Shown one piece after another: positions 13,889 to 58,579 of a stretch of DNA of 64,000 bases; within the stretch, counting starts at the first letter, position 1, and each line of letters begins with the position of its first letter. The position numbers and the translations under genes are program-made. Origin of the DNA: Escherichia coli (GTDB lineage: Bacteria > Pseudomonadota > Gammaproteobacteria > Enterobacterales > Enterobacteriaceae); assembly GCF_003018255.1 (NCBI RefSeq), contig NZ_CP027440.1, one strand, 5' to 3'. The notes beneath the pieces were generated by a model. It saw only the letters and a program-made list of their open reading frames with translations, did no database searches and was not told the DNA's origin.

Positions 13889-14539
13889 TCAGAAAATGCG
13901 CTCCTGATGCACCCATACCGCAGCTTCCACGCGAGACTTTAGCTTCATTTTCTTCAGCATGTGCTTGACGTGAACTTTTACTGTGCTTTCGGTGATGTCC
14001 AGGCGGCGGGCAATCATCTTGTTCGGCAAACCCTGGGCAATTAGCTTGAGAATATCGCGCTCGCGTGGGGTTAACTGGTTAACATCGCGCTCAGTAGTGG
14101 CACGGTTAGCGCGCAAGCTGGCGGCCAGAACAGGCGTTAATGCTTCGCTTAATACCATTTCGCCAGCAGCTGCCTGATGTAACGCTTTCAGCAGATCTTC
14201 CGGTTCCATATCTTTTAACAGATAGCCATCCGCGCCGCGTTTCAGTGCGGTGACCACATCTTCTTCATGGTTAGAGACGCTGAATACCACAATGCGCCCG
14301 GAGAGGGACTTTTCGCGCAGTTTATCCAGCGTTTCCAGACCGTTCATGCCGGGCATATTGAGATCTAACAGGATCAGATCGGGATCAAGAGACTCCGCCA
14401 GTTCAATACCCTGTTCGCCATTACTCGCTTCGCCAACCACGGTGATATCTGGTGCCATACTGATAAGCTGTTTTACGCCAGTTCGCAGCATCGGGTGATC
14501 GTCAATCAGCAGGATAGTAGCCGGTTCCTGATTACTCAT
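13889..14539 (-). CDS. narL: Nitrate/nitrite response regulator NarL
   Basis: ORF track 13889..14653; start moved to ATG (plus 14537-14539, [19 protein letters not shown]..., 216 aa); receiver domain plus LuxR-type HTH. Confidence 0.93.
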
Positions 14540-16328
14540 GGGTATCTCCTTGGACGTCTGTGAAAGTTTTTTCGGGAATAAAGGTGACCACCACTTCGGT
14601 GCCACCTGATTCACGACGGCGGACGCGGCAATCGCCCCGTAAACTTTGCGCACGGTCGCGCATTATTATCATGCCGTAGTGATTGCTGCGGATGGCATTT
14701 TCAGGCACGCCGCAGCCGTTATCCTGGACGGTCAGTTTGACCTGATTATCGTTTTGCGCCACTGTCACCACGACCTCACTCGCTTGCGAATGTTTGAGGG
14801 CGTTACTTAATGCCTCACGGGCAATTTGCAACAGATGGATTGCCTGATGCGAAGGCACCAGACGAGGCGGCAATTGATAATCCAGCTTCACCGGGAAGCC
14901 AAACCTGGCGCTGTACTCTTCGCAACTCGCCTCCAGCGCCGGACGTAATCCAGGCTCGGTGAGCTGCAAGCGGAATGTGGTGAGCAATTCACGCAACTGC
15001 GCCCAGGATGCATTCAGTTCGTTACGGATCTGACTTAACAGTTCGCGGCTGCTTTCTGGCAGCGCATCGCCCTGCATCTGTAAACAACTCACCTGCATCT
15101 TCATGCAAGAGAGAGATTGGGCAATAGAATCATGCAGTTCGCGCGCAATGGTGGCACGCTCTTCCATCACGATCAACTGTTGCTGACGTTCCTGATGGCG
15201 ATCCAGCGCAAGCGTGGCGGTGAGTTGTTCAACCAGGGTATCCACCAGTTGTTGTTGATCATGACTAAGATGACGCCCCTGCGGCAGGGTTGCCAGCAAA
15301 ATACCGTACTGCGTATGAGAGTCAGCCAGCCGCCACTTCAGGGTTGTGCCGCGATCGCCAACGGGGAGTACACCGCGCGGGCAGAGCTGACAGCCTTTAT
15401 CATCGCAGGTCATATCTGGCTGGCAGGTAAACTCCTGATGATTCTCTTCATCATCAGTGTCATACACCCGCAGTTCGATATCACGTAGCAGGGTTAAATT
15501 CTGTAAGCCGTTGAGTACAGGTGACAAGCGTTCACACAGCGGGGCGCGGGAATGCAAACGGCGGTTAGCCTGCCATAAAAAAGAGAGGATCTGATTTTTA
15601 TGCTCCAGCCCGGCGGTTTTCTCCTGAACCCGCTGCTCAAGTACGGCATAACTTTCGGCCAGTTCTGCAGACATATTGTTCAACGCAGTTCCAAGCATCG
15701 CCATTTCGTTGCGCCCGCTGATGTTCGCGCGTTGGGTAAAATCGCGATGACTGACGGCACTCGCCATTGCCAGCAATTGCCGCCACGGTTGTAGCAGTCG
15801 CGCCCGCAACCAGATAATAGTGAACACCAGTAAAAGTGCCATAAATACCGCCATTACCCGATGGACCAGTACCACTGTCTCAATGCGCATTTCCGTGGTG
15901 CGGTCAAAACCAGATACCAGCTGATCAAGCCCGGCAACAAACTGGCTGACATCCGCTGACACCGTTTCGCGGTTTTGAGCACGCATCAGCGTAGGGATCA
16001 GTTCATTACGCCAGTAATCTTGTAAACCCTGTAATTGCGCCAGTTGTCCGTCTCGTTCTGCTGCTCGGGTTAACTCGGCGCTAAATGCCGTTTGTTCCAT
16101 TTCTTTAATTAAGGGCTTGTCTTTCTCGCTTAATGGCACTGCTGCCAACAGACGGTAACTTTGCATGCGCAGCGATCCCGCTTTGTTGATCGCATGGGCG
16201 CTGCCCTGAACGCCTTGCACTAGCCAGCCAGAAACTGCCATCCCTGCCAGTCCAATAGCAGTAGAAAGCAACACAATAAGCGCAACCTGATTAACCAGGG
16301 TGAGCGGAGAGAGACAACGTTTAAGCAT
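14532..16328 (-). CDS. narX: Nitrate/nitrite sensor histidine kinase NarX
   Basis: ORF track 598 aa; H-box HDSIAQSL visible; 8-nt overlap with narL. Confidence 0.93.
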
Positions 16329-16593
16329 GTAAACCTCTTCCTTCAGGCTTTAAATGAGCAATAACCTTAATGAATGTGACGATACATTCTGGAATGGCAG
16401 TATTCTCGGCTATTGGCTGAAGTATACCCATACCCGGAAAGAGTTACTCCTTATTTGCCGTGTGGTTAGTCGCTTTACATCGGTAAGGGTAGGGATTTTA
16501 CAGCACCGTGAAAAATCTCATAATTTTTATGAAATCACTGTACTCACTATGGATAATGATAAATATCAATGATAGATAAAGTTATCTTATCGT

Positions 16594-16607
16594 TTGATTT
16601 ACATCAA
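16594..16607 (+). promoter_or_regulatory. FNR-type binding site upstream of narK
   Basis: Perfect TTGAT-N4-ATCAA (ttgatttacatcaa) about 60 bp upstream of the narK ATG. Confidence 0.6.
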
Positions 16608-16666
16608 ATTGCCTTTAGCTACAGACACTAAGGTGGCAGACATCGAAACGAGTATCAGAGGTGTCT

Positions 16667-18058
16667 ATGAGTCACTCATCCGCCCCCGAAAGGGCTACTG
16701 GAGCTGTCATTACAGATTGGCGACCGGAAGATCCTGCGTTCTGGCAACAACGCGGTCAACGTATTGCCAGCCGCAACCTGTGGATTTCCGTTCCCTGTCT
16801 GTTGCTGGCGTTTTGCGTATGGATGTTGTTCAGCGCTGTTGCGGTGAACTTACCGAAAGTCGGTTTTAATTTTACGACCGATCAGCTATTTATGTTGACT
16901 GCGCTGCCTTCGGTTTCTGGCGCGTTATTACGTGTTCCATACTCCTTTATGGTTCCTATCTTTGGTGGTCGTCGCTGGACGGCGTTCAGCACCGGTATTC
17001 TGATTATTCCTTGCGTCTGGCTGGGTTTTGCCGTGCAGGATACCTCCACGCCTTATAGCGTCTTCATCATCATTTCTCTGCTGTGCGGCTTTGCTGGCGC
17101 GAACTTCGCATCCAGTATGGCAAACATCAGCTTCTTCTTTCCGAAACAGAAGCAGGGTGGCGCGCTGGGTCTGAATGGTGGTCTGGGCAACATGGGCGTC
17201 AGCGTCATGCAGTTGGTTGCTCCGCTGGTGGTATCACTGTCGATTTTCGCAGTATTTGGTAGCCAGGGCGTCAAACAGCCGGATGGGACTGAGCTGTATC
17301 TGGCGAATGCGTCCTGGATATGGGTGCCGTTCCTTGCCATCTTCACCATTGCGGCGTGGTTTGGCATGAACGATCTTGCTACCTCGAAAGCCTCCATCAA
17401 GGAGCAGTTGCCGGTACTCAAACGGGGTCATCTGTGGATTATGAGCCTGCTGTATCTGGCAACCTTCGGCTCCTTCATCGGCTTCTCCGCGGGCTTTGCG
17501 ATGCTGTCAAAAACGCAGTTCCCGGATGTTCAGATTCTGCAATACGCTTTCTTCGGGCCGTTTATTGGTGCGCTGGCGCGTTCTGCAGGTGGTGCATTAT
17601 CTGACCGTCTGGGCGGAACTCGTGTCACTCTGGTGAACTTTATCCTGATGGCGATTTTCAGCGGCCTGCTGTTCCTGACCTTACCGACTGACGGACAGGG
17701 CGGAAGCTTCATGGCGTTCTTCGCAGTCTTCCTGGCGCTGTTCCTGACCGCTGGGCTGGGTAGTGGTTCCACTTTCCAGATGATTTCCGTGATCTTCCGT
17801 AAACTGACAATGGATCGTGTGAAAGCAGAAGGGGGTTCTGACGAACGTGCGATGCGTGAAGCGGCAACCGACACGGCGGCGGCGCTGGGTTTCATCTCTG
17901 CGATTGGCGCGATTGGTGGCTTCTTTATCCCGAAAGCGTTTGGTAGCTCGCTGGCATTAACGGGTTCGCCAGTCGGCGCAATGAAAGTATTTTTGATTTT
18001 CTATATCGCCTGCGTGGTGATTACCTGGGCGGTATATGGTCGGCATTCTAAAAAATAA
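16667..18058 (+). CDS. narK: Nitrate/nitrite antiporter NarK (MFS)
   Basis: ORF track 16661..18058; start moved to ATG 16667 (MSHSSAPERATG..., 463 aa). Confidence 0.92.
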   Translation: MSHSSAPERATGAVITDWRPEDPAFWQQRGQRIASRNLWISVPCLLLAFCVWMLFSAVAVNLPKVGFNFTTDQLFMLTALPSVSGALLRVPYSFMVPIFGGRRWTAFSTGILIIPCVWLGFAVQDTSTPYSVFIIISLLCGFAGANFASSMANISFFFPKQKQGGALGLNGGLGNMGVSVMQLVAPLVVSLSIFAVFGSQGVKQPDGTELYLANASWIWVPFLAIFTIAAWFGMNDLATSKASIKEQLPVLKRGHLWIMSLLYLATFGSFIGFSAGFAMLSKTQFPDVQILQYAFFGPFIGALARSAGGALSDRLGGTRVTLVNFILMAIFSGLLFLTLPTDGQGGSFMAFFAVFLALFLTAGLGSGSTFQMISVIFRKLTMDRVKAEGGSDERAMREAATDTAAALGFISAIGAIGGFFIPKAFGSSLALTGSPVGAMKVFLIFYIACVVITWAVYGRHSKK

Positions 18059-18345
18059 ATCGTAATATTTGATTATCCTTTGCGCGGCATGATGTCGCGC
18101 TTTTTTTATGCGTCATTTAGTTACAACATACTAATGTTGTATGGCTTATTTCGCTGGATTTCATTAAGAGTCATTAATATGTTACCCATGGGGAATACTC
18201 CTTAATACCCATCTGCATAAAAATCTTAATAGTTTAAATAACTACAGGTATAAAACGTCTTAATTTACAGCGTGTTATGCCGTAACCGCTAATTATCCTA
18301 AAGGGGTATCTTAGGAATTTACTTTATTTTTCATCCCCATCACTC

Positions 18346-18359
18346 TTGATCGTTATCAA
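18346..18359 (+). promoter_or_regulatory. FNR-type binding site upstream of narG
   Basis: Perfect TTGAT-N4-ATCAA (ttgatcgttatcaa) about 100 bp upstream of the narG ATG. Confidence 0.6.
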
Positions 18360-18450
18360 TTCTCACGCTGTTTCAGAGCGTTACCTTGCCCTTAAACATT
18401 AGCAATGTCGATTTATCAGAGGGCCGACAGGCTCCCACAGGAGAAAACCG

Positions 18451-21400
18451 ATGAGTAAATTCCTGGACCGGTTTCGCTACTTCAAACAGAAGGGTGAAAC
18501 CTTTGCCGATGGGCATGGCCAGCTTCTCAATACCAACCGTGACTGGGAGGATGGATATCGCCAGCGTTGGCAGCATGACAAAATCGTCCGCTCTACCCAC
18601 GGGGTAAACTGCACCGGCTCCTGCAGCTGGAAAATCTACGTCAAAAACGGTCTGGTGACCTGGGAAACCCAGCAGACTGACTATCCGCGTACTCGCCCGG
18701 ACCTGCCAAACCATGAACCTCGCGGCTGCCCGCGCGGTGCCAGCTACTCCTGGTATCTTTACAGCGCCAACCGCCTGAAATACCCAATGATGCGCAAACG
18801 CCTGATGAAAATGTGGCGTGAAGCGAAGGCGCTGCATAGCGATCCGGTTGAGGCATGGGCTTCTATCATTGAAGACGCCGATAAAGCGAAAAGCTTTAAG
18901 CAGGCGCGTGGACGCGGTGGTTTTGTTCGTTCTTCCTGGCAGGAAGTGAATGAACTGATCGCCGCCTCTAACGTTTACACCATCAAAAACTACGGCCCGG
19001 ACCGCGTCGCTGGCTTCTCGCCAATTCCGGCAATGTCGATGGTTTCTTACGCATCGGGTGCACGCTATCTTTCGCTGATTGGCGGTACTTGCTTAAGCTT
19101 CTACGACTGGTACTGCGACCTGCCTCCTGCGTCTCCGCAAACCTGGGGCGAGCAAACTGACGTACCGGAATCTGCTGACTGGTACAACTCCAGCTACATC
19201 ATCGCCTGGGGTTCAAACGTGCCGCAGACGCGTACCCCGGATGCTCACTTCTTTACTGAAGTGCGTTACAAAGGCACCAAAACTGTTGCCGTCACACCAG
19301 ACTACGCTGAAATCGCCAAACTGTGCGATCTGTGGCTGGCACCGAAACAGGGCACCGATGCGGCAATGGCGCTGGCGATGGGCCACGTAATGCTGCGTGA
19401 ATTCCACCTCGACAACCCAAGCCAGTATTTCACCGACTATGTGCGCCGCTACACCGACATGCCGATGCTGGTGATGCTGGAAGAGCGCGACGGTTACTAC
19501 GCTGCGGGTCGTATGCTGCGCGCTGCTGATCTGGTGGATGCGCTGGGCCAGGAAAACAATCCGGAATGGAAAACTGTCGCCTTTAATACCAATGGCGAAA
19601 TGGTTGCGCCGAACGGTTCTATTGGCTTCCGCTGGGGCGAGAAGGGCAAATGGAATCTTGAGCAGCGCGACGGCAAAACTGGCGAAGAAACCGAGCTGCA
19701 ACTGAGCCTGCTGGGTAGCCAGGATGAGATCGCTGAGGTGGGCTTCCCGTACTTTGGTGGCGATGGCACGGAACACTTCAACAAAGTGGAACTGGAAAAC
19801 GTGCTGCTGCATAAGCTGCCGGTGAAACGCCTGCAACTGGCTGATGGCAGCACCGCCCTGGTGACCACCGTTTATGATCTGACGCTGGCAAACTACGGTC
19901 TGGAACGTGGCCTGAACGACGTTAACTGTGCAACCAGCTATGACGATGTGAAAGCTTACACCCCTGCCTGGGCAGAGCAGATTACCGGCGTTTCTCGCAG
20001 CCAGATTATTCGCATCGCCCGTGAATTTGCCGATAACGCTGATAAAACGCACGGTCGTTCGATGATTATCGTCGGCGCTGGGCTGAACCACTGGTATCAC
20101 CTGGACATGAACTATCGTGGTCTGATCAACATGCTGATTTTCTGCGGTTGTGTCGGTCAGAGCGGGGGCGGCTGGGCGCACTATGTAGGTCAGGAAAAAC
20201 TGCGTCCGCAAACCGGCTGGCAGCCGCTGGCGTTTGCCCTCGACTGGCAGCGTCCGGCGCGTCACATGAACAGTACCTCTTATTTCTATAACCACTCCAG
20301 CCAGTGGCGTTATGAAACCGTGACTGCGGAAGAACTGCTGTCGCCGATGGCGGATAAATCTCGCTATACCGGACACTTGATCGACTTTAACGTCCGTGCA
20401 GAACGCATGGGCTGGCTGCCGTCTGCGCCGCAGTTAGGCACTAACCCGCTGACTATCGCTCGCGAAGCAGAAAAAGCCGGGATGAATCCGGTGGACTATA
20501 CGGTGAAATCCCTGAAAGAGGGTTCTATCCGTTTCGCTGCGGAACAGCCGGAAAACGGTAAAAACCACCCGCGTAATCTGTTCATCTGGCGTTCTAACCT
20601 GCTCGGTTCTTCCGGTAAAGGTCATGAGTTTATGCTCAAGTACCTGCTGGGGACGGAGCACGGTATCCAGGGCAAAGACCTGGGGCAGCAGGGCGGCGTG
20701 AAGCCGGAAGAAGTGGACTGGCAGGACAACGGTCTGGAAGGCAAGCTGGATCTGGTGGTGACGCTGGACTTCCGTCTGTCGAGCACCTGTCTCTATTCCG
20801 ACATCATTTTGCCGACGGCGACCTGGTACGAAAAAGACGATATGAATACTTCGGATATGCATCCGTTTATTCACCCGCTGTCTGCGGCGGTCGATCCGGC
20901 CTGGGAAGCGAAAAGCGACTGGGAAATCTACAAAGCCATCGCGAAGAAATTCTCCGAAGTGTGCGTTGGTCATCTGGGTAAAGAAACTGACATCGTCACG
21001 CTGCCTATCCAGCACGACTCTGCCGCTGAACTGGCGCAACCGCTGGATGTGAAAGACTGGAAAAAAGGCGAATGCGACCTGATCCCAGGTAAAACTGCAC
21101 CGCACATTATGGTCGTAGAGCGCGATTATCCAGCAACTTACGAACGCTTTACCTCTATCGGCCCGCTGATGGAGAAAATCGGTAACGGCGGTAAAGGGAT
21201 TGCCTGGAACACCCAGAGCGAGATGGATCTGCTGCGTAAGCTCAACTACACCAAAGCGGAAGGTCCGGCAAAAGGCCAGCCGATGCTCAATACCGCAATT
21301 GATGCGGCAGAGATGATCCTGACGCTGGCACCGGAAACCAATGGTCAGGTAGCTGTAAAAGCCTGGGCTGCCCTGAGCGAGTTTACCGGCCGTGACCATA

Positions 21401-22194
21401 CGCATCTGGCGCTGAATAAAGAAGACGAGAAGATTCGCTTCCGCGATATTCAGGCACAGCCGCGCAAAATCATCTCCAGCCCGACATGGTCTGGCCTTGA
21501 AGATGAACACGTTTCTTACAACGCCGGTTACACCAACGTTCACGAGCTGATCCCGTGGCGTACGCTCTCTGGCCGTCAGCAGCTGTATCAGGATCACCAA
21601 TGGATGCGTGATTTCGGTGAAAGCCTGCTGGTTTATCGTCCGCCGATCGACACCCGTTCGGTGAAAGAAGTGATGGGCCAGAAATCCAATGGCAACCCGG
21701 AAAAAGCGCTCAACTTCCTGACGCCACACCAGAAGTGGGGTATCCACTCCACCTACAGCGACAACCTGCTGATGCTGACTTTAGGTCGCGGTGGTCCGGT
21801 GGTCTGGCTGAGTGAAGCCGATGCCAAAGAGCTGGGTATCGCCGATAACGACTGGATTGAAGTCTTCAACAGCAACGGTGCACTGACTGCCCGTGCGGTT
21901 GTCAGCCAGCGTGTTCCGGCAGGGATGACCATGATGTACCACGCGCAGGAACGTATCGTTAACCTGCCTGGTTCGGAAATTACCCAACAGCGTGGTGGTA
22001 TCCATAACTCGGTCACCCGTATCACGCCGAAACCGACGCATATGATCGGCGGCTATGCCCATCTGGCATATGGCTTTAACTACTACGGCACCGTAGGTTC
22101 TAACCGCGATGAGTTTGTTGTAGTGCGTAAGATGAAGAACATTGACTGGTTAGATGGCGAAGGCAATGACCAGGTACAGGAGAGCGTAAAATGA
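18451..22194 (+). CDS. narG: Respiratory nitrate reductase alpha subunit
   Basis: ORF track 1247 aa; Mo-bisMGD enzyme with N-terminal Cys cluster (HGVNCTGSCSWK). Confidence 0.96.
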   Translation: MSKFLDRFRYFKQKGETFADGHGQLLNTNRDWEDGYRQRWQHDKIVRSTHGVNCTGSCSWKIYVKNGLVTWETQQTDYPRTRPDLPNHEPRGCPRGASYSWYLYSANRLKYPMMRKRLMKMWREAKALHSDPVEAWASIIEDADKAKSFKQARGRGGFVRSSWQEVNELIAASNVYTIKNYGPDRVAGFSPIPAMSMVSYASGARYLSLIGGTCLSFYDWYCDLPPASPQTWGEQTDVPESADWYNSSYIIAWGSNVPQTRTPDAHFFTEVRYKGTKTVAVTPDYAEIAKLCDLWLAPKQGTDAAMALAMGHVMLREFHLDNPSQYFTDYVRRYTDMPMLVMLEERDGYYAAGRMLRAADLVDALGQENNPEWKTVAFNTNGEMVAPNGSIGFRWGEKGKWNLEQRDGKTGEETELQLSLLGSQDEIAEVGFPYFGGDGTEHFNKVELENVLLHKLPVKRLQLADGSTALVTTVYDLTLANYGLERGLNDVNCATSYDDVKAYTPAWAEQITGVSRSQIIRIAREFADNADKTHGRSMIIVGAGLNHWYHLDMNYRGLINMLIFCGCVGQSGGGWAHYVGQEKLRPQTGWQPLAFALDWQRPARHMNSTSYFYNHSSQWRYETVTAEELLSPMADKSRYTGHLIDFNVRAERMGWLPSAPQLGTNPLTIAREAEKAGMNPVDYTVKSLKEGSIRFAAEQPENGKNHPRNLFIWRSNLLGSSGKGHEFMLKYLLGTEHGIQGKDLGQQGGVKPEEVDWQDNGLEGKLDLVVTLDFRLSSTCLYSDIILPTATWYEKDDMNTSDMHPFIHPLSAAVDPAWEAKSDWEIYKAIAKKFSEVCVGHLGKETDIVTLPIQHDSAAELAQPLDVKDWKKGECDLIPGKTAPHIMVVERDYPATYERFTSIGPLMEKIGNGGKGIAWNTQSEMDLLRKLNYTKAEGPAKGQPMLNTAIDAAEMILTLAPETNGQVAVKAWAALSEFTGRDHTHLALNKEDEKIRFRDIQAQPRKIISSPTWSGLEDEHVSYNAGYTNVHELIPWRTLSGRQQLYQDHQWMRDFGESLLVYRPPIDTRSVKEVMGQKSNGNPEKALNFLTPHQKWGIHSTYSDNLLMLTLGRGGPVVWLSEADAKELGIADNDWIEVFNSNGALTARAVVSQRVPAGMTMMYHAQERIVNLPGSEITQQRGGIHNSVTRITPKPTHMIGGYAHLAYGFNYYGTVGSNRDEFVVVRKMKNIDWLDGEGNDQVQESVK

Positions 22195-23729
22195 AAATTC
22201 GTTCACAAGTCGGCATGGTGCTGAATCTCGATAAGTGCATCGGCTGCCACACCTGTTCAGTGACCTGTAAAAACGTCTGGACCAGCCGTGAAGGCGTGGA
22301 ATACGCGTGGTTCAACAACGTGGAAACCAAGCCGGGCCAGGGCTTCCCGACTGACTGGGAAAACCAGGAAAAATACAAAGGCGGCTGGATCCGTAAAATC
22401 AACGGCAAACTGCAGCCGCGCATGGGTAACCGTGCCATGCTGCTGGGTAAAATCTTCGCTAACCCGCATCTGCCGGGGATCGACGATTATTACGAGCCGT
22501 TCGATTTTGATTATCAGAACCTGCATACCGCGCCGGAAGGCAGCAAATCACAGCCGATTGCCCGTCCGCGTTCACTGATTACCGGCGAACGGATGGCGAA
22601 AATCGAAAAAGGGCCGAACTGGGAAGATGACCTGGGCGGTGAGTTTGACAAGCTGGCGAAAGACAAGAACTTCGACAACATCCAGAAGGCGATGTATAGC
22701 CAGTTCGAAAACACCTTCATGATGTATTTGCCGCGCCTGTGCGAACACTGTCTGAACCCGGCATGTGTGGCGACCTGCCCGAGCGGTGCGATTTACAAGC
22801 GTGAAGAAGATGGCATCGTCCTGATCGACCAGGATAAATGCCGTGGCTGGCGTATGTGCATCACCGGATGCCCGTACAAAAAAATCTACTTCAACTGGAA
22901 GAGCGGTAAGTCTGAGAAGTGCATCTTCTGCTATCCGCGTATTGAAGCCGGCCAGCCGACAATATGTTCAGAAACCTGTGTCGGTCGTATCCGTTATCTT
23001 GGCGTGCTGCTGTACGATGCCGACGCGATTGAACGTGCGGCAAGTACCGAGAACGAGAAAGATCTCTACCAGCGTCAGCTGGATGTGTTCCTCGATCCGA
23101 ACGATCCGAAAGTCATCGAGCAGGCGATTAAAGACGGTATTCCGCTGAGCGTTATTGAGGCTGCACAGCAGTCGCCAGTTTATAAAATGGCGATGGAATG
23201 GAAACTGGCGCTGCCGCTGCATCCGGAATATCGCACACTGCCGATGGTCTGGTACGTGCCGCCTCTGTCGCCGATTCAGTCTGCGGCAGACGCGGGTGAA
23301 CTGGGCAGCAACGGCATTCTGCCAGACGTCGAAAGCCTGCGTATTCCGGTACAGTATCTGGCGAATCTGCTGACCGCCGGTGATACCAAACCGGTACTGC
23401 GCGCGCTGAAACGTATGCTGGCGATGCGTCATTACAAACGTGCTGAAACCGTTGACGGTAAAGTCGATACCCGTGCGCTGGAAGAGGTCGGTCTGACCGA
23501 AGCCCAGGCACAGGAGATGTATCGTTATCTGGCTATTGCCAACTACGAAGATCGCTTTGTGGTGCCGAGCAGTCATCGTGAACTGGCGCGGGAAGCCTTC
23601 CCGGAGAAAAATGGCTGCGGCTTTACCTTTGGTGATGGCTGCCACGGTTCAGATACCAAATTCAATCTGTTTAACAGCCGTCGTATCGATGCCATCGACG
23701 TGACCAGTAAAACGGAGCCGCACCCATGA
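22191..23729 (+). CDS. narH: Respiratory nitrate reductase beta subunit (Fe-S)
   Basis: ORF track 512 aa; multiple Cys clusters (CIGCHTC..., CEHCLNPAC...); ATGA overlap with narG. Confidence 0.96.
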   Translation: MKIRSQVGMVLNLDKCIGCHTCSVTCKNVWTSREGVEYAWFNNVETKPGQGFPTDWENQEKYKGGWIRKINGKLQPRMGNRAMLLGKIFANPHLPGIDDYYEPFDFDYQNLHTAPEGSKSQPIARPRSLITGERMAKIEKGPNWEDDLGGEFDKLAKDKNFDNIQKAMYSQFENTFMMYLPRLCEHCLNPACVATCPSGAIYKREEDGIVLIDQDKCRGWRMCITGCPYKKIYFNWKSGKSEKCIFCYPRIEAGQPTICSETCVGRIRYLGVLLYDADAIERAASTENEKDLYQRQLDVFLDPNDPKVIEQAIKDGIPLSVIEAAQQSPVYKMAMEWKLALPLHPEYRTLPMVWYVPPLSPIQSAADAGELGSNGILPDVESLRIPVQYLANLLTAGDTKPVLRALKRMLAMRHYKRAETVDGKVDTRALEEVGLTEAQAQEMYRYLAIANYEDRFVVPSSHRELAREAFPEKNGCGFTFGDGCHGSDTKFNLFNSRRIDAIDVTSKTEPHP

Positions 23730-25246: not shown

Positions 25247-25295
25247 TTGGGCAGAATTAGCTCGGAGTAACAGGTTTTGAGTATTTACAGGAAGT

Positions 25296-25475
25296 GATGG
25301 TGGTGGAGGAAGGATTACTCAGCGCTGCGCGCTTCGCCCTTCGGGTCGTTGCCTGCGGCCACGCTCTCTCGCTGGCGCTCGAGTCGAACCCTGGTCGAAG
25401 CTTCTCATCCTTCCCCGCTTGGGCAGAATATTTAATCGCGGATTCGTTTGAGAGTTCACGGACTTTTGAAAGTGA
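25296..25475 (-). repeat. tyrT-distal rtT/tpr-type repeat unit (about 180 bp) starting with a degenerate copy of the tRNA-Tyr 3' end
   Basis: Unit begins tggtggtggaggaaggatt, one mismatch from the tRNA 3' end tggtggtgggggaaggatt; lies transcriptionally downstream of the tRNA array on the minus strand. Confidence 0.55.
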
Positions 25476-25560
<85 letters not shown>

Positions 25561-25594
25561 AGGGGTAATTCAAATTTTGAGGTAATGCTTGAGA

Positions 25595-25679
<85 letters not shown>

Positions 25680-25713
25680 AGGGGTAATTCAAATTTTGAG
25701 GTAATGCTTGAGA

Positions 25714-25798
<85 letters not shown>

Positions 25799-25957
25799 AC
25801 GGGGTAATGCTTTTTACTAGCCTGCTCCCTTATCGGGAAGCGGGGCGCATCATATCAAATGACGCGCCGCTGTAAAGTGTTACGTTGAGAAAAATGAACT
25901 GGTTGCGTAATTTTCACCCGTAACGGATTAAAGGTAACCAGTTATTTTTGCTGGCGA

Positions 25958-32587: not shown

Positions 32588-34013
32588 ATAATGCCAGTCA
32601 GTTAAGCAACTGACTGGCTCTTTTTCGGGGCTGTGGGGTATTTCCAGGGCCTCTCCTTTACCACTCTCGGGAAGGCACTTTCCCTTCTTGTCGGTAATTT
32701 CACAAGTTGTCCCATACTTGCAAGATCGCGCATCAGCTCCGGTATACGTCCCGGTGAAGCGCCCTGCAATGTCATCAGCATTCTCATCACCATTCCGCAT
32801 GATTCTGAGAAACTCAGTTGATTCGGCCAGTAACCTTTCAGATGTTCCGCCATTTTAATCATCTGATATCTCACCAGATTATAAGCCAGTAAGACACCCC
32901 ACAGCTCTTGCTCCACAAGCTCCGGCTTTTTACTTCTCAGCGTCAGCCTGCTCAGTTGCATCGTCTGTTTTATCTCCCTGTATCCCAGTTCGATTTCCCA
33001 GCGATGACTGTACAGATCCGCCATTTCTCCTCCGGGGAAGCGCATGGCGTCCGTCATCGACGTCAGCAGATGGCAGACTTTTCCTTTGCGCGTCACGGTC
33101 AGCAGGCGGGCTGTCACTTCATTTCCCAGTCCCGGCCACTTTTTTCGTGCCTGCGGGCTGATGTTCAGCTTCACCAGATGCTCGCCTTTACCCAGTTTTC
33201 TGATCTCTTCATATTGCGCTCCCTTTCTGAGAGGGATCATCCAGTGGCGGTGTTCTCCCGCCTGGCTCCAGGCATTTAACAGTCCTGGTGAGTAATAACC
33301 TTTATCCATTAACGTCAGAGTGTTATCGTCGGTTTGTTCTATAAGTTGCTCAGCAAGCTCATTTTCGCTGTTCTTCATCGTGCCGAAGGCTGCAGTCGTC
33401 AGCAGATGGCTGGTCAGTTCCATCTGGCAGACCATTTTGACCTGCGGGTAGAGCGCCGGGTTCCCGGCATGTGTCTGGCGGGGGAAGGCTGCATTGTTCT
33501 CTGGTGTATCCGGTGTGCGCCAGAACACACCATCGATGGCCAGCAGGGTCAGGCCGCACCAGTGCGGATGCGGCGTGGCGTTATGTCAGAGCTGCGCTGT
33601 TTTCGTGAACACGCGGCGGACAGCCTCAATTCCCAGACGCTGGCGGGTCTGAATAACGGCACTGGGGCAACGAAGGGGCGATTGCCCGGCAGCATGATGT
33701 CCAGGCGATTCACAATCTGGTGAAGAGGTTCTTTACGCTCAAGCGCCATGCCAACAATACACCAGACCATCATTTCGAGGGGAAGACGGCGCTTGCGTAG
33801 CGTTACAGTACCTGATTCGGCAAGGCAACGAGAGATGAGTTCGGGGTCGAGGTAATCCCCCAGAGAAGTCAGTGGGTTACGCAGAGAATCGTAACGGGAT
33901 ACCAGATCAAGAGCCTGTCCAATGTGCATAAAAAAATCCGGAAACAAGTGAGCGTTTCCGGATTCTTACACAGCCACTGGATCGGTCAACTGATCCTTAA
34001 CTGATCGGCATTA
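32588..34013 (-). mobile_element. IS4 insertion sequence with inactivated transposase
   Basis: Terminal imperfect inverted repeats (left taatgccagtcagttaag..., right end reverse complement taatgccgatcagttaag...), flanked by an 11-bp direct repeat ccccagaaggg (32577-32587 and 34014-34024); left boundary uncertain by 1 bp. Confidence 0.85.
32602..33929 (-). pseudogene. insZ: IS4 transposase (InsG-like), disrupted by a frameshift and an in-frame stop
   Basis: Two minus ORFs (33549..33947 and 32602..33528) together cover the IS4 transposase; the first runs out of frame after PFVAP and ends at a TGA where I recall TGG in intact IS4. Confidence 0.8.
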
Positions 34014-36730: not shown

Positions 36731-37206
36731 AATGCTCTCCTGATAATGTTAAACTTTTTTAGTAAATCATCTGCTCGAATACGAGAGTATAGTCAGTGCG
36801 GTGATGATTTGCTTAACCGATGAAAATCAAAAGCTTACTCGCGCTCACACTCACTGTGATTTACTAAAAGAGTTTAAACATTAGAGTTATTATCTCTAAT
36901 GCGTCACTTCCAGGTGGCGTAAGCAAGATTACTCACTTCTGGGTACTGATTACGTGATCCAAATCAAATTTTTGCAAAGCTGATACCTTTCAGCATCGCT
37001 TTTCGCCATTATAGCTAACAGTTAATAAATTGTAGTATGATTTGTTGGCTACATTAGCATGTTTTGCACAACCAGATAACAATAACGAATGATAGCAATT
37101 TTAAGTAGTTAGGAGGTGAAAAATGCTGTCAAAAGGCGTATTGTCAGCGCGTCTTTTTAACCTTATTTATGGCTAACATTATCCGGCTTTTGCTTCGGAG
37201 CTAACC

Positions 37207-37854: not shown

Positions 37855-38591
37855 TTCCTTTCAAATGAAACGGAGCTGTCATGCTCCGTTTACTTCGTCA
37901 TTATTTTTACTTTGTTCCCGCGCAGTTATCAAAAGCAAAAGGAATGGGTGAAAATATTCTTCTCAAATTACAGTTAGTTATAAGGATTTCCTTAACTGCT
38001 TCTCCTCACCATCATGTTATTTTCGCCACATCATAATCCTGGGCTTGCTGAAGAATAATTGAAATGATATTAGTAATTCCACTGCCTTTGGTAGAGGAAA
38101 GTGCTAAATAATAATCAATTGTTAAATTATTGTGCATTTCACTACTGGAACTGTAATCAGAAAAGAGAGACATGCTTAACCAATCTCTATTTGATTGAAT
38201 TGAAAGATGTTTGTTAAGACATGGATGCAAGCTATAGATTCTGATGCGGTCAATAAAAGAGAATTGCTTAACAATTTTGCAAAATGTATTGGCGAGTAAG
38301 AAGCGCATTTGGTACTTTCCGGGCAACCGCCAGGCGATTCTTTATTGGTAATGAGAATAATTAACAATTAAAGAGCGTCGCGAAAGAATAATGTGTCTCG
38401 ACAGGGGAGACACAGTACGAATCGACATAAGGTGATCGTCTGAATCACCAGAATAAATAAAGTCGGTGATAGCAATCCGTAACGATAAAGTAACCTGACA
38501 GCAGAAAGTCTCCGAGCCTGTGCAGGGTCCCAATCCGGGATTACACATGCTGGTTAATACCAGTAATTATAATGAGGGAGTCCAAAAAACA

Positions 38592-51074: not shown

Positions 51075-51430
51075 GCACTCTCCTTGAGTTTTATGCAGGT
51101 GTTAATTAGCGGGTAATTGTACCCTGGTTAAGCCTCGGGTGGCAGCATCAGGTCTTGTATGGAAAAGCATATCTTTGTAAAGCGGAGGTAATTGCTGGCC
51201 TTCAGACGTGGGCAAATCGCGGCAAGTGGCGATCGAGTTAATATTTGCGTAGCGAAAATATTTAAAAATTGATTTAAATCACATTAACCAGGATTCTCAA
51301 TGCAACTTCTAAATTAATCCAGATCAATAAATGGTGAATTATCATATGTAATGTGATCTATGTAGGATCATTTGTTACTCCAATGTAGGTATATTCGTCA
51401 CGTTTTTATAACCATAACGACGGAGCGGAT

Positions 51431-52069: not shown

Positions 52070-52072
52070 TTT

Positions 52073-52107
52073 TCTCTGCAAAATCTCTGCAAAACTCCTC
52101 TGCAAAA
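52073..52107 (+). repeat. Three tandem direct repeats (tctctgcaaaa x2, ctcctctgcaaaa) between ompW and the prophage integrase
   Basis: Read directly from sequence; located where integrase arm-type binding sites of an attL are expected. Confidence 0.5.
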
Positions 52108-52132
52108 CTGGTCATCAAATGACCAGTTTTTT
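52104..52132. terminator. Palindromic bidirectional terminator overlapping the integrase stop codon
   Basis: aaaa-ctggtcat-caa-atgaccag-tttttt; perfect 8-bp inverted repeat flanked by A-run and T-run. Confidence 0.65.
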
Positions 52133-53245
52133 CCACTCTTTACCGCGTACATCGTTGTAAATATCGGTCATTTTTTGATTCGAATGACCCAGCAAAATTT
52201 GGGTATCAATTCCCTGCTCCCTGAACAATCGCTCTGATAAAGATCTCTGCTCATGGAAAGAGGGTGGAGTGCCATTAGCGCGCCAGTTGTAATCCACAGA
52301 ATCCCGGGCTTTTTTAAATGCAACTGTCAACGTTGCTGGCTTAACCATCCCGCCGCGCTTAGCTGTCCCTTTAGCATGATGGTGGTGCAATAACCACGGA
52401 CTAAGAACGCAATCGCGACAGGATGACACTACATCATCCAGGGTGAGATTTAATTTATCGCAACGCAGAGCCAGAGGGATGGCAATCCGGGTTCCTGTTT
52501 TTTGCTGTTCGACATGAAGATAACCATCCCTGATATCCGAAAATTTCATTTTGCAAATATCTGAAAGGCGCTGGCCTGTCATCAGCGCCAGCAGCATACC
52601 ACGTTGTAAAAAGTAACCATCCTTTTCCGCTGCATTATAAATCATCATCCACTCATCAAAGGTCAGTCGTTGCCGTGATATCCGTACCTGTGGTTTTTTT
52701 GCCGATTCTGCAGGGTTAAAGCCTGGCGAGACATCGCCCGTTTGCTGGGCCTCCCGGAAAACATCAATCAGTACTTTCCTGAAAATTTGTCCCATTCTGT
52801 TATGTCCTTTTGCCTTGTAATCTTCCAGCACCGATACCACATCTTTTACGGTTATGGCATCTAATGGTCTGGTACCAAAACGTTCATCAAATACCCTGAG
52901 AGGGGATGCTTTCTGTTTCAGTGTGTTGAGTTTGATCTCTCCGTTTTCATATCTTTCCTGTTGAATTTTTCGGTAACTATTCAGAAAAACAGAAACGGTT
53001 GATGAACCACCGGTATCACGAATAATTTTCTCCTGCAGAGTGAGCATTTGTTCCATTTGTTGCCTGGCAAGACGGCTGTTCGCTTCTGCTGCAATAGCTT
53101 CTGCCTGTTTCTGGTCAATACTGCCGAGCCCGTGATTTTTTCCTGTTATGGGATGCCTGTAACGCCAGTAAACTTTGTTATTTCTTTTGTCAAAATACGG
53201 AGATAATCCCGGAACTTCAGTTTTATATTTTCGTGGGCGCGCCAT
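52115..53245 (-). CDS. int: Phage integrase (tyrosine recombinase, lambda Int family)
   Basis: ORF track 376 aa; C-terminal LLGHSNQKMTDIYNDVRGKEW resembles the lambda Int active-site region (H, R, catalytic Y). Confidence 0.9.
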   Translation of the reverse strand: MARPRKYKTEVPGLSPYFDKRNNKVYWRYRHPITGKNHGLGSIDQKQAEAIAAEANSRLARQQMEQMLTLQEKIIRDTGGSSTVSVFLNSYRKIQQERYENGEIKLNTLKQKASPLRVFDERFGTRPLDAITVKDVVSVLEDYKAKGHNRMGQIFRKVLIDVFREAQQTGDVSPGFNPAESAKKPQVRISRQRLTFDEWMMIYNAAEKDGYFLQRGMLLALMTGQRLSDICKMKFSDIRDGYLHVEQQKTGTRIAIPLALRCDKLNLTLDDVVSSCRDCVLSPWLLHHHHAKGTAKRGGMVKPATLTVAFKKARDSVDYNWRANGTPPSFHEQRSLSERLFREQGIDTQILLGHSNQKMTDIYNDVRGKEWKKLVI

Positions 53246-53471
53246 CTTCCAGTATCCTCTTCAAAGCAGGGTGATCTGTGGCGATCACTTCCGGCTTGTT
53301 TACCATTCCGACAAAGCGAGCTCGAGGATCCACTCGCCAGTGTCTTCCAACTTTTTTGGGGAGAGGAAATATCATTCCGGCTTTAGCGTATTTACTTAAC
53401 GTGCCCGGAGTAGGGACCGGTTCACTGAATTCCTCTTTTGCCCACTCAGTGAGCAGAATAAGTCTTGCCAT
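53223..53471 (-). CDS. xis: Excisionase (lambda Xis-like)
   Basis: ORF track 82 aa; LILLTEW...GMIFPLPKKVGRHWRV resembles lambda Xis; overlaps int start by 23 nt. Confidence 0.7.
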   Translation of the reverse strand: MARLILLTEWAKEEFSEPVPTPGTLSKYAKAGMIFPLPKKVGRHWRVDPRARFVGMVNKPEVIATDHPALKRILEDGAPTKI

Positions 53472-53535
53472 GAACGTTGTTCGCTAATCATGGTCGCCGC
53501 CACTATAGCTTGCGGGCGACGACCGGGGTTGAACA

Positions 53536-56007
53536 TTAAAAATCAGCCTGACTCGGGATCAGTTTTTGCCAGATGGCTGAAACGTATTTTGCCTGGTAAC
53601 GCGCATCGTGCAGCGCGTTATGGCGTTCACCTTCGAATGGAATAGTCGTTCTTGCGTCGAAATCCATCACCAGTCCCAGAGCAACCATCGTTCTTACATC
53701 GCGATCATTGGTGTAACGCCACGGGCAGGGGATCCCCTGCCGTTCATATGAACGGCGTAAAATCACGTTGTCGAAAGTTGCACCGTTACCCCAGACCTGA
53801 ACAAAAAATTCACCGGAGTTTTCGTCGATAAATTCCCGGAATTGCAGCAGTGCATCATCCAACGGGATTTCATCGGTCAGAATGGCGGATTGTGCTTCGC
53901 GTGACTGTTTCAGCCACCACTTAATGGTGCCCCGATCGATGACCCCGCCTGCGGTTTCCAGATCGATAGTTTTGCTGAATTCTGGCCCCATCTCTCCGGT
54001 TGCCGGATCAAAAAACTTACCGGCTATAGAGTTTATTGGCGCATCAGGATTTTTTCCCATTGTTTCAAGGTCAATCATCAGATGGTGCCACAACCTGCTG
54101 GTGGATGTGATTTCATGATGACCGTTCACTTTAATTAAGGGATTTGCTGTCTCGCCAGTTTTATTATCGCTGGCGTGATACTGATCGCTGACAGTGTTCT
54201 CCTTGTGCAGATGTTCAGTGCCTTCCATTTCCTCCGGATCATTTTCCTGAGCTTCAGCCTGATTCTCTTCATCGAATGTTTCCTGGTTGGTTGCGTTCCC
54301 CATCACCGCACCACAGTCAGGACAGTTGCCGCCACCGGTCTGACCGCATGCGGTGCAAACTTTTTCCGGTTCTTGTTGCACTTCTGGTTCAGGCAGTTTC
54401 GTTTCTGGCTCGTTTTGTAACGCATTTGGACTGTTTTGTTCCGCTTTCTGGTCGTTTTGTTCCGATTCGGGCTGGTTCTGGTTCACAGAATCGCGGGTTT
54501 CAATCCCCTTAACCCATTTCGGATCATTCGGGTCGCTAATCCCTTCAACAAATTCACCACGTGATGCAGCAAGCAATTTATCGGTGTCAGGCTGGCTGAT
54601 ATTGGCTGCCTGCATAATTTTGTTTACTTCGTCAGCGGTAACTTTTACCGGCTCTGGTTGTTCTGAATCTTCTGCGGTATCTGTATTTTGCTGTAAGCCC
54701 GTATATGTGCCATTTTTTCGGGCAAAATATTCTTCTTTTGAGATTTCGGTACCACCGGCAGCCAGCGCCTTGTCCAGGCCAGAAAGTTTGTTTGCCCTGC
54801 CGTATTTTTCCCCGTCCTTATCGGTAAAGACGAAATAAAACGGTCCTTCACGCTCTACAGATGGTTCAGCTTCCACCAGGATTTCATTTTTTTGAGAATT
54901 GGATTCCGCCGTCTCCACTGGATCAGTTTGTGCTGCTGACGACAGGATAGCATCAGCAGAGCTCTGGTCTGTTTCTTCATGTTCAAACACGCCCTTTGTC
55001 GTCAGGTATTCGCTGATGTATTTGTTCAGTGCAACGGGATCTTTGTGAATGTCGATCGGGCGCTCACGAACAAGGCCAAAAATAGTCTGACGGTCATAGC
55101 GAAGCGCATCAGGCTGTTTGCGCATTGATGCAGAGATACGCTTCCAGTCTTCGCGATCCTTGTCGATAACCTCATTTTTAGCCCAGCGATGGATGGTACC
55201 GTCAATGTTTCCGGCATCAATATCACCAGGCCAGAGAGCGTAAGCCAGCTCTTCATCCAGGGTTTTCCATGTCTGCTTGTATTCGCGACGAATGGCAGTA
55301 GTGACAGGGTTGATTTTTGCTGCTGAGTTTTCAGTGTGCTGTTGGTTGACTCTGGCGCGGGCCAGCTCAACAACAGAAGTATGTTTCCCGGTTTCTTTTC
55401 GTTCTGCTTCGCGACGTTTTTTCCAGGTGCGCATCTCTGCCTGAATTTCTGGCCATTTGGCACCAGGCTTACATTTATGCTTAACCCACCCGATGGCATG
55501 CAGTTTAATCTCCGGATACATGGCGTTAACTTCTGGCATTTTCATCAACGCTTCAACGATATGTCCGTCGAAGGTTGCCATGTCTTCCTGCAACAATTCC
55601 TGTGCGCTAATCACCATATCAACGGTGATGTTTTCACATGTGTCGAACTTAACCATGACAGCGTTCTGTACTTCAGGGGACAGCTTGTCAAAAGTGACGT
55701 TCATCGGATCTGATTCAGTCTCAACCGGGACAAAGGAAGCAGACGCCTCATCCCAGCGGTTTTCCAGCATATATTCAGCATCCCAGGAGTCGAGGGCTGG
55801 GCGGGGTGTACCGGGTTTATCCTCACAGACAAGAAATTTATAAGCGCAGTCCTGAGCAGCCGGATAATGTTCAAGGAATTGCCAGTGAAATTTTGCGCGG
55901 GCGCGACGTTCATCACCGGCTTCAATGGCTGTGGCCACAGCAACAGCGCCCTCGTTTTTTATTGCCTGTTCGTCAGGAATGGCGGCGCAAATAAATATTT
56001 TACTCAT
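53536..56007 (-). CDS. Large prophage exonuclease-like protein with C-terminal DnaQ-like (DEDDh) 3'-5' exonuclease domain
   Basis: ORF track 823 aa; C-terminus has motifs in order DLETMG, FDNVIL, HNALHDARY; CxxC...CxxC (CTACGQTGGGNCPDCG) mid-protein; acidic Q/E/N/P-rich linker. Sits in the exo/recE position after xis. Confidence 0.75.
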   Translation of the reverse strand: MSKIFICAAIPDEQAIKNEGAVAVATAIEAGDERRARAKFHWQFLEHYPAAQDCAYKFLVCEDKPGTPRPALDSWDAEYMLENRWDEASASFVPVETESDPMNVTFDKLSPEVQNAVMVKFDTCENITVDMVISAQELLQEDMATFDGHIVEALMKMPEVNAMYPEIKLHAIGWVKHKCKPGAKWPEIQAEMRTWKKRREAERKETGKHTSVVELARARVNQQHTENSAAKINPVTTAIRREYKQTWKTLDEELAYALWPGDIDAGNIDGTIHRWAKNEVIDKDREDWKRISASMRKQPDALRYDRQTIFGLVRERPIDIHKDPVALNKYISEYLTTKGVFEHEETDQSSADAILSSAAQTDPVETAESNSQKNEILVEAEPSVEREGPFYFVFTDKDGEKYGRANKLSGLDKALAAGGTEISKEEYFARKNGTYTGLQQNTDTAEDSEQPEPVKVTADEVNKIMQAANISQPDTDKLLAASRGEFVEGISDPNDPKWVKGIETRDSVNQNQPESEQNDQKAEQNSPNALQNEPETKLPEPEVQQEPEKVCTACGQTGGGNCPDCGAVMGNATNQETFDEENQAEAQENDPEEMEGTEHLHKENTVSDQYHASDNKTGETANPLIKVNGHHEITSTSRLWHHLMIDLETMGKNPDAPINSIAGKFFDPATGEMGPEFSKTIDLETAGGVIDRGTIKWWLKQSREAQSAILTDEIPLDDALLQFREFIDENSGEFFVQVWGNGATFDNVILRRSYERQGIPCPWRYTNDRDVRTMVALGLVMDFDARTTIPFEGERHNALHDARYQAKYVSAIWQKLIPSQADF

Positions 56008-56102
56008 TGTGTTTAAACCTCATTACAGATTTCAGGGTGAACGAATCCCTGCCATTGCTGGCATTTTTAATCCGTTGGTATGGCGTTAATATGGCTGGCG
56101 GG

Positions 56103-56291
56103 TTATCCAGCCGGTGTTTCGTTATTCAGGTACAGCGATACTTTGTTTAACGGGAGACATTCACCGGAAATTTTTTGCTCGTCTCTTGCCTGATGGCAGG
56201 ATTCTTTACTGGCATAAATTCCGGTAATCACATTCTGTGGCTCACCCGTTATAAGAAAAACCGTCATTACCAGTGCAAATGCAGAAGTCAC
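56103..56291 (-). CDS. Small prophage early protein with N-terminal hydrophobic segment (62 aa), function unknown
   Basis: ORF track; GTG start preceded by SD ggaggg; start overlaps the upstream gene stop as GTGA; N-terminus MTSAFALVMTVFLITG. Confidence 0.55.
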   Translation of the reverse strand: MTSAFALVMTVFLITGEPQNVITGIYASKESCHQARDEQKISGECLPLNKVSLYLNNETPAG

Positions 56292-56476
56292 TGCTGCCCT
56301 CCGAAAATGCCAAGTTTAAGAAGGGCAATTCTGGAGAGTATGGAATTATCATTGAGAAGATAAGGCTCATATTTTCTCATCCTGATGGCGTCCTCAGTAA
56401 ACTCCCGGTTACTGAGCAGAATACCAATATTAAAACACCCTTCAGACGTATTAACGTTTGGTAGTGACGTTTCCAT
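56288..56476 (-). CDS. Small prophage early protein (62 aa), function unknown
   Basis: ORF track; ATG preceded by SD gagga at 7-nt spacing; coupled to the downstream gene. Confidence 0.55.
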   Translation of the reverse strand: METSLPNVNTSEGCFNIGILLSNREFTEDAIRMRKYEPYLLNDNSILSRIALLKLGIFGGQQ

Positions 56477-56650
56477 TATCGCGTCCTCAACAATGAATTT
56501 TGTGATGTGGTGCCTGGTGCCTCCAGGTGACGTTAACCAGTTAACAATTAACGCCGGATTGTTAGTTGATGTCTGTTACGCCAGTAAAAGACCGCTTGTT
56601 TTAACTGTTCCGCGTGCGCTTAGCCGCATTCACCGCATCACAAAATACAC

Positions 56651-56680
56651 TTTAAAAATGGCGGATATCCATTTCCGCCG
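56651..56680 (-). terminator. Putative rho-independent terminator (minus strand)
   Basis: Stem ggcgga/tccgcc with 8-nt loop, followed on the minus strand by ATTTTTAAA. Confidence 0.45.
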
Positions 56681-57004
56681 AATCACCAGAAAAGTGATAA
56701 CAGAGGTTGTTGTGGCGGTGTTGTCACTCAGGCGTATGGTCAACCTGACAACCCGGTGCATTTTCTGGAGCAATGGAGGAAGCCCCAGCCATACTTACCG
56801 CCGCGCCATTTCGCGGATTGCCACAACCGGAAGCGCACGATCGAATTACATTTAACGACGACATATACAGAGAGACTAACTTCGCCGAGCGCTTTCGTGT
56901 TGTGTGCCTGCTTTTAACCACGTCAGGCGAGGTGGACCTGTTATTCCCCAACAACAAGGAGCTTGTTAATCTGGATATCCCCAACAACAATAAGAGTATT
57001 GAAT

Positions 57005-57448: not shown

Positions 57449-57632
57449 ATAAAAATCCGGATTATGTATCGCCTCCATCTATTGAGGAGTTGGCCAGAAA
57501 ACTGAACGGCAATCTGTAGATTGTTACTGTTATGGATATCCAGATTGTTAAAGAGCATGCCGGATGCTTGCTTGTGTCCGGCGCGTGTGCACCAGTTCTC
57601 CCCGTGGAGGATTCCTTAACTACCAGACTTCA

Positions 57633-58500: not shown

Positions 58501-58579
58501 AAGTTCAATGATATTTGCTATTGAATGTACTGTCAGTTCTGTTATATTGTGTACTCAAAGTTCACATTGTGAGGGTGAT
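58501..58579. promoter_or_regulatory. Divergent promoter/operator region of the immunity module (pRM-like and pR-like)
   Basis: Palindrome TTCAAT-N10-ATTGAA at 58504-58525; + strand -35 ttgaat (58521-26) and -10 tatatt (58543-48); minus strand -35 ctgaca and -10 tatcat placing the start within a few nt of the repressor ATG (leaderless). Confidence 0.55.

Follow-up and report, generated by a model that had tools for sequence, protein, structure and literature searches.

Perfect FNR palindromes at the narK and narG promoters of an Escherichia coli nar locus, and their setting compared across genera

The DNA analysed here, which we call the window, is a stretch of 64,000 nucleotides from the Escherichia coli contig NZ_CP027440.1 (assembly GCF_003018255.1). 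On its minus strand lie narL (13889–14539), encoding the nitrate/nitrite response regulator that binds heptamers, and narX (14532–16328), encoding the nitrate sensor kinase and divergent from narK. The plus strand carries narK (16667–18058) for the nitrate/nitrite antiporter, narG (18451–22194) for the alpha subunit of nitrate reductase A, and, after narG, narH (22191–23729). All five products scored above the curated cut-offs of NCBIfam equivalog or subfamily models: NarL against NF007935 (equivalog, 422 bits with a cut-off of 250), NarX against NF007896 (equivalog, 1209.7 bits, full length), NarK against TIGR00886 (NarK family, 394.9 bits), NarG against TIGR01580 (equivalog, 2597.5 bits) and NarH against TIGR01660 (1024.6 bits). 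We set the narL start at 14539 because the NF007935 match begins at residue 39 of the listed open reading frame. RefSeq annotation of near-identical genomes concurs for narK, and the names narK and narG, which a preliminary description had assigned from the letters alone, agree with the NCBIfam models and with RefSeq.

A 2.4-kb region of the locus was found in 5415 of 5426 complete E. coli genomes, with a best identity of 99.4%. Compared with K-12, the narL-narX, narK and narGHJI region is 97.9–98.5% identical and has the same gene order. The window is an unremarkable stretch of E. coli chromosome that surrounds the nar locus familiar from K-12.

Palindromes. A pattern search of the 64-kb window for TTGAT-N4-ATCAA gave exactly two perfect matches (10/10 positions), TTGATTTACATCAA at 16594–16607 (centre 16600.5) before narK and TTGATCGTTATCAA at 18346–18359 before narG, which are the coordinates that the preliminary description had reported. 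Both lie within the intergenic spacers immediately 5' of these genes, the first with its centre 66.5 bp from the narK ATG at 16667 and the second with its centre 98.5 bp from the narG ATG at 18451. Of the other FNR-type sites in the window, those with one mismatch, three coincide with known FNR sites of adhE/ychE and ompW that appear in the ChIP list of Myers 2013.

The simplest objection is that both palindromes are chance matches with no regulatory role. Dinucleotide-preserving shuffles gave a mean of 0.18 perfect boxes per window, and at least two in 4 of 100 shuffles, so the count by itself is only modestly significant; one-mismatch sites at 3120 and 26321, inside coding open reading frames, are probably chance themselves. 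It is placement and conservation, not the count, that decide the case for real sites. Both boxes sit in promoter spacers, each followed by a conserved -10 hexamer (described below) at the spacing of class II promoters, and the identical sites of K-12 are bound by FNR in ChIP (PMC3688515).

For conservation, we used NarK as a query to collect 80 loci from species-representative genomes and counted as orthologous the 42 loci, from about 20 genera, in which NarK is at least 80% identical. A perfect box precedes narK in all 42, at 64.5–68.5 bp from the gene, in genera that include Escherichia, Citrobacter, Pseudocitrobacter, Trabulsiella, Kluyvera, Enterobacter, Lelliottia, Leclercia, Klebsiella, Raoultella, Pluralibacter, Kosakonia, Silvania, Pseudescherichia, Entomohabitans, Cedecea and Phytobacter. 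A perfect box also follows narK in 38 of 40 loci, 93.5–113.5 bp before narG. The two exceptions have no adjacent narG, the gene being missing or lying elsewhere; the narG that lies elsewhere has a perfect box of its own. More distant narK genes (Rahnella, Limnobaculum, Erwinia) have a perfect box too.

The narU-narZYWV locus resembles narK-narG in having a NarK-family transporter followed by a nitrate reductase alpha subunit, and its NarU-type proteins are 70–77% identical to NarK. In all 27 narU-narZ loci, neither the 300 bp before narU nor the narU-narZ spacer held an FNR-like site with fewer than two mismatches. These 27 loci are a natural negative control for the boxes. The narU-narZYWV paralogue is not known to be induced by FNR, and the absence of boxes there fits this. 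Perfect boxes in 42/42 and 38/40 orthologous loci amid diverging spacer, against 0/27 paralogous loci, already refute the chance reading, to which we give next to no credence.

Evidence from K-12. We converted the window coordinates to MG1655 and subtracted 777 bp, which we take to be the offset between two K-12 genome sequence versions; the results, 1277107 and 1278982, are exactly the published positions, and this agreement corroborates the offset. The motif matches listed under FNR ChIP peaks are '1277107 TTGATTTACATCAA narX/narK' and '1278982 TTGATCGTTATCAA narG' (PMC3688515 suppl. file 6). Both narK and narGHJI are given as directly activated by FNR from a site at -41.5 (Myers 2013 Table 1, PMC3688515, a second-hand source for the start mapping). 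The expression ratios are 0.068 for narK and 0.020 for narG (PMC3688515 suppl. file 12), which we take to be fnr mutant over wild type; read in this way, they mean that narK and narG drop 15- to 50-fold in the K-12 fnr mutant. Anaerobic activation of both operons by FNR, as first proposed for these palindromes, is thus backed by the identity of the sites with K-12, by ChIP, by the -41.5 positions and by the fnr ratios. On comparison with the mapped K-12 promoters, the boxes fall at the published -41.5, and we found no mapped start incompatible with them.

A different protein of the CRP/FNR family, such as CRP, could in principle be the main binder of the boxes in place of FNR. CRP sites are related to those of FNR, being 5-bp inverted repeats used at the same class II position. 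The core of a CRP site is TGTGA/TCACA, whereas the half-sites here are TTGAT/ATCAA, which is the FNR consensus. A narG derivative does work with CRP, but after replacement of its FNR site (PMC9314961), and at the identical K-12 sites there are both FNR ChIP signal and fnr dependence (PMC3688515). We regard binding mainly by CRP or another relative as extremely improbable, and FNR as the protein for which both boxes are operators.

The narK promoter. Counting back from the published -41.5 and the centre of the box, we infer a plus-strand transcription start at 16642 (A), which would leave a 25-nt leader. The probable -10 hexamer, chosen by its spacing, is TAAGGT at 16629–16634 on the plus strand, 28 bp from the box centre; most genera have TAATGT. 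Because this -10-like hexamer is 28 and not 29 bp from the centre, the start could equally be 16641, with FNR then at -40.5. An alignment of 20 species conserves the T, the A and the final T of the hexamer.

Upstream of the box, a motif scan found two distal NarL-type heptamers on the plus strand (16425–16451), TACCCAT at 16425–16431 (centre -214) and TACTCCT at 16445–16451 (centre -194). These are two TACYYMT heptamers in the 338 bp of the spacer, compared with 0.67 per kb in the window (P = 0.022). In the 20-species alignment, the blocks that contain them, TATACCCATACC (16423–16434) and TTACYYCT (16444–16451), are invariant or nearly so. A proximal NarL-type pair occupies 16541–16555 and consists of TACTCAC (16541–16547, -98) and ATGGATA (-90). 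The same alignment also keeps a GTGAAAAA block near 16508, the TACTCAC heptamer, the FNR box and the Shine-Dalgarno region.

There is a second FNR-like site in this spacer, ATGATAAATATCAA at 16556–16569, with one mismatch; it is centred at -79.5, 38 bp upstream of the main narK box. It may correspond to a second FNR site known at narK. A literature search for tandem FNR sites at narK gave nothing specific, and one FNR site is given for narK in Myers 2013 (PMC3688515). In the 20-species alignment, the -79.5 site is found in E. coli and E. albertii only, which suggests at most a lineage-specific accessory site.

The narX-narK spacer is common to both genes, and the ChIP peak is labelled narX/narK (PMC3688515), so one may ask if the main target of the box, acting by itself or together with the -79.5 site, is the divergent narXL operon and not narK. 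The geometry argues for narK: the centre of the box lies 272 bp away from the ATG of narX and 66.5 bp from that of narK, the distance to narK is constant within about 2 bp across genera of Enterobacteriaceae, and the conserved -10 hexamer 28 bp downstream of the box is on the narK strand. In K-12, narK is 15-fold fnr-dependent (PMC3688515). We find a box that serves mainly narXL very hard to credit, and treat it as the operator of narK.

The narG promoter. Here the start calculated back from the published -41.5 would be 18394 (A) on the plus strand, with a 57-nt leader. The -10 hexamer TACCTT (18382–18387, plus strand) then falls at -12 to -7; its distance from the centre of the box, 29 bp, is the optimal spacing for class II activation of the CRP/FNR type (PMC9314961). 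In the alignment of 20 species, the box and its flanks are conserved as CTTGATC..ATCAATTC, there is no gap between box and -10 hexamer, and positions 1, 2 and 6 of the hexamer (T18382, A18383 and T18387) are invariant.

On the plus strand, a distal cluster of NarL heptamers spans 18183–18212, with TACCCAT at 18183–18189 (-208), TACTCCT at 18196–18202 (-195) and TACCCAT at 18206–18212 (-185). A proximal heptamer, AGGGGTA on the minus strand (18302–18308), is centred at -89, in the region of the high-affinity footprint of phosphorylated NarL (NarL-P). DNase I footprints of NarL-P at narG are published for two regions, one of high affinity at -89 and another at -195 (PMC4549865), and with +1 at 18394 the AGGGGTA centred at -89 and the TACTCCT centred at -195 coincide with them. 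This start is therefore supported by three independent published coordinates (FNR at -41.5, NarL at -89 and -195), which all fit it. The narK-narG spacer has 10.2 TACYYMT heptamers per kb (4 in 392 bp), compared with 0.67 per kb in the window (Poisson P ~1.6e-4). The preliminary description had pointed to heptamers upstream of narG, with TACCCAT near 18200 as its example. That example is real, since the motif occurs at 18183 and 18206, but the list was incomplete and lacked the -89 site, the narK heptamers and the FNR-like site at -79.5.

Across the 20 species, the distal and proximal heptamers of narG differ in how well they are kept. The -195/-185 pair, TACYCCTTAATACC, is nearly invariant, and the GGTA core of the -89 heptamer is conserved, with a perfect inverted repeat at -89 in other genera. 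The TACCCAT at -208 is found only in Escherichia.

We also looked for features that might be expected at such promoters. The window has no 7-2-7 inverted heptamer pair at narG; since narG is described as being without 7-2-7 sites as well (PMC4549865), this pair is not a defining feature of narG-type activation. Activation of narG requires FNR, NarL and IHF (PMC3688515, PMC4549865), and a search upstream of narG for the IHF consensus WATCAANNNNTTR with up to one mismatch gave no site. A scan for the sigma-70 consensus found a promoter at neither the narK nor the narG box, which is expected because class II promoters are activator-dependent.

Differences from K-12. These are small. Relative to MG1655, the 338-bp narX-narK spacer differs at two bases, A for G at 16534 and at 16553. 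All of the spacer from the FNR box onwards, with the -10 hexamer and the Shine-Dalgarno sequence, is unchanged, and so are the second FNR-like site and the distal heptamers. The change at 16553 turns the perfect NarL heptamer ATGGGTA of K-12 into ATGGATA at -90 of narK; several other genera also have A in this column of the 20-species alignment. Before narG, the sequence is identical to K-12 from -104 (18290) to the ATG, except for a C to T change at 18363, which is at -31 of the narG promoter, four bases 3' of the FNR box. The box itself, the -10 TACCTT, the -89 heptamer, the leader and the heptamers at -208, -195 and -185 are unchanged.

Most of the divergence before narG is in a short patch at 18271–18289 (-123 to -105), with 8 substitutions in 19 bp compared with K-12, and four further SNPs lie upstream of it at 18139, 18145, 18155 and 18171. 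The patch is hypervariable within Escherichia. The allele of the window has no exact match among 5,426 complete E. coli genomes, and only 44 of the 5426 have even a 28-mer in common with it. We considered a small inversion of the K-12 allele as the origin of the patch and rejected it on inspection.

Leader. The part of the narG leader at 18413–18445 (plus strand) contains GCAATGTCGATTT, then GAGCC-loop-GGCTC, then the Shine-Dalgarno sequence CAGGAGA, and across the 20 species it varies less than most of the promoter does. In all 22 sequences a 5-bp hairpin (GAGCC/GGCUC) was predicted. We did not accept the leader as a structured RNA: there were 0 compensatory changes and two one-sided changes, and the fold z-score was -0.63. 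We also rejected an upstream open reading frame, which would begin with the ATG at 18416 and, in E. coli and Klebsiella, runs without a stop as far as the start of narG. Four genera (Lelliottia, Enterobacter, Silvania and Leclercia) have a 3-nt deletion that makes the fourth codon a stop, and what is conserved is the nucleotide sequence, third positions included. A search of 16200–18600 against Rfam at a permissive E-value gave nothing credible: the only hits, L20_leader and KCNQ1OT1, had E = 0.17 and fell far short of their gathering scores. Neither NarS nor the narG leader has a curated Rfam family.

It is conceivable, but in our judgement doubtful, that the variants (the -123 to -105 patch, -31 and narK -90) retune nitrate or anaerobic induction relative to K-12, or that the narG leader is an undescribed post-transcriptional element.

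The 3' end of narK and NarS. An intrinsic terminator lies at 18082–18107 on the plus strand, with an 8-bp stem that includes 6 GC pairs, followed by a T-run. K-12 has an extra 123 bp directly after the narK stop that the window lacks. We found this segment in 2457 of 5416 E. coli genomes, so the window has the slightly commoner, insertion-free allele; extra matches elsewhere point to its repeated nature. We take the segment to resemble ERIC/IRU. An insertion close to the stop codon of narK makes the NarS sRNA of K-12 long, while that of Salmonella is 63 nt (Wang et al. 2020, PMC7038943). Because the insertion is absent, NarS in the window should be short and Salmonella-like, with its predicted 3' end at the 18082–18107 terminator.

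Taken across genera, the alignments give a compact picture of which promoter parts are under constraint. The conserved parts are the FNR box and the bases that flank it directly, three positions of the -10 hexamer, the heptamers at -89 and at -195/-185, and the leader of narG. The -208 heptamer, the FNR-like site at -79.5 of narK and the -123 to -105 spacer are lineage-specific.

We conclude with very high confidence that the two boxes are the FNR operators of narKp and narGp, both of them sigma-70 promoters of the class II, activator-dependent kind. Our own analysis supplies the identity with K-12, the -10 spacing, the enrichment and positions of the heptamers, the conservation in orthologues and the absence from paralogues. 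The K-12 literature supplies the occupancy by FNR, the -41.5 position from mapped starts, the fnr dependence, the NarL footprints and the IHF requirement, and from the sequence we infer that this strain behaves like K-12. Without oxygen, an FNR dimer with its [4Fe-4S] cluster would bind both palindromes, centred at -41.5. Each site overlaps a poor -35 position, and direct contact with FNR would recruit RNA polymerase. A nitrate signal passing through NarX and NarL would place phospho-NarL on the upstream TACYYMT heptamers, at about -89 and at -208/-195/-185 for narG and at about -98/-90 and -214/-194 for narK. NarL-P together with bending by IHF would then raise FNR-dependent initiation.

Both FNR sites and their regulation are already known and are textbook biology; narG and narK are among the founding examples of promoters that depend on FNR and NarL. 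We see the result as a useful positive control, in which motif calls, coordinates and interpretation made from sequence only have held.

The promoters of dmsA, nirB, nrfA and ydfZ are of the same class II kind as those of narG and narK, with an FNR dimer at -41.5, a weak -35 and direct contact with RNA polymerase (PMC3688515). Their co-regulators set them apart from narG and narK: dmsA is repressed by NarL, and 7-2-7 sites are used at nirB and nrfA. The boxes of narG and narK match the consensus perfectly, whereas many FNR sites are partial matches (PMC3688515).

Up to a point just past ompW the window is collinear with K-12. Beyond it, at 52072-64000, lies a lambdoid prophage segment with integrase, exonuclease, YdaT-like and DnaT-like genes, and at 80% coverage or more this segment occurs in only 11 complete E. 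coli genomes, which are mostly STEC-type strains. The window has an intact IS4-family transposase gene at 32607-33978, in the tdk/adhE interval; the insZ pseudogene (ISZ) occupies this place in K-12. The window does not have the IS5U that K-12 carries between ychE and oppA (window 38104-38107). The tyrT/tyrV tRNA-Tyr repeat region (25292-25808) broke into several overlapping pieces when aligned to K-12, which suggests from the alignment that the tandem repeat units differ in number or arrangement.

The narK-narG region itself was matched on plasmid-labelled records in 14 of 5422 cases among complete E. coli assemblies; such records may reflect large plasmids that carry a piece of chromosome, or replicons given the wrong label.

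Immediately 3' of the narK stop, K-12 has a 123-bp repeat-like insertion (NC_000913.3 1279349-1279471), which we take to be ERIC/IRU-like. The window does not have it, with the junction at 18058/18059, and the insertion is polymorphic in the species, being present in 2457 of 5416 E. coli genomes. Because the insertion falls within the annotated narS sRNA of K-12 and is missing from the window, we predict that the window should encode a short Salmonella-type NarS of about 63 nt, with its 3' end at the terminator at 18082-18107.

Apart from the FNR and FNR-like sites at narK and narG, the window has five FNR-like sites with one mismatch. One, GTGATCCAAATCAA at 36954-36967, is in the adhE/ychE spacer, and two more, TTGATTTAAATCAC at 51269-51282 and TTAATCCAGATCAA at 51314-51327, are upstream of ompW; all three are ChIP-supported FNR sites in supplementary file 6 of Myers 2013 (PMC3688515). 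The remaining two, at 3120 and 26321 (purU), fall within coding ORFs. In the narU-narZ paralogue loci retrieved with NarK as the query (L041-L044, L046-L051, L053-L066, L068, L070 and L071), where the NarU-type proteins have 70-77% identity to NarK, there was no FNR-like site with fewer than two mismatches upstream of narU or narZ. What recurs at these loci is GTGATGCACACCAA, just inside narZ or just 5' of it.

The narG 5' leader, at 18413-18445, is near-invariant in about 20 genera and is more conserved than most of the promoter. It runs from GCAATGTCGATTT through GAGCC, a variable loop and GGCTC to the Shine-Dalgarno sequence. The cross-genus alignment of about 20 genera had no compensatory changes in the predicted GAGCC/GGCTC hairpin, and Rfam had no match to the leader. 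We also considered an upstream ORF, which we rejected as the reading frame is not kept across genera.

The promoter itself has a hypervariable patch at 18271-18289 (-123 to -105 of narG), between both NarL regions, with 8 substitutions in 19 bp relative to K-12, while divergence nearby is 1-2%. Across 5426 complete E. coli genomes, the window allele of the patch shares a 28-mer with just 44 and is identical in none. Each allele keeps a short dyad, which is AGCG..CGCT in the window and ACAG..CTGT in K-12.

Two single-base differences from K-12 also fall within or next to regulatory motifs. At 16553, G->A turns the perfect NarL heptamer ATGGGTA (narK -90) into ATGGATA; at 18363 (narGp -31), four bases past the 3' end of the narG FNR box, there is a C->T that is also found in E. 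coli strain 2A and E. albertii.

The -89 site of narG aligns in many other genera as a perfect inverted repeat whose halves are 2 bp apart (seen, for instance, around 4487-4510 of L015, another NarK-retrieved locus), such as TACCACC-TT-GGTGGTA in Kluyvera, whereas E. coli retains the right half alone (TTATCCT-AA-AGGGGTA, window 18293-18308). As read from the alignment, this half site fits the published description of E. coli narG as having no 7-2-7 sites (PMC4549865).
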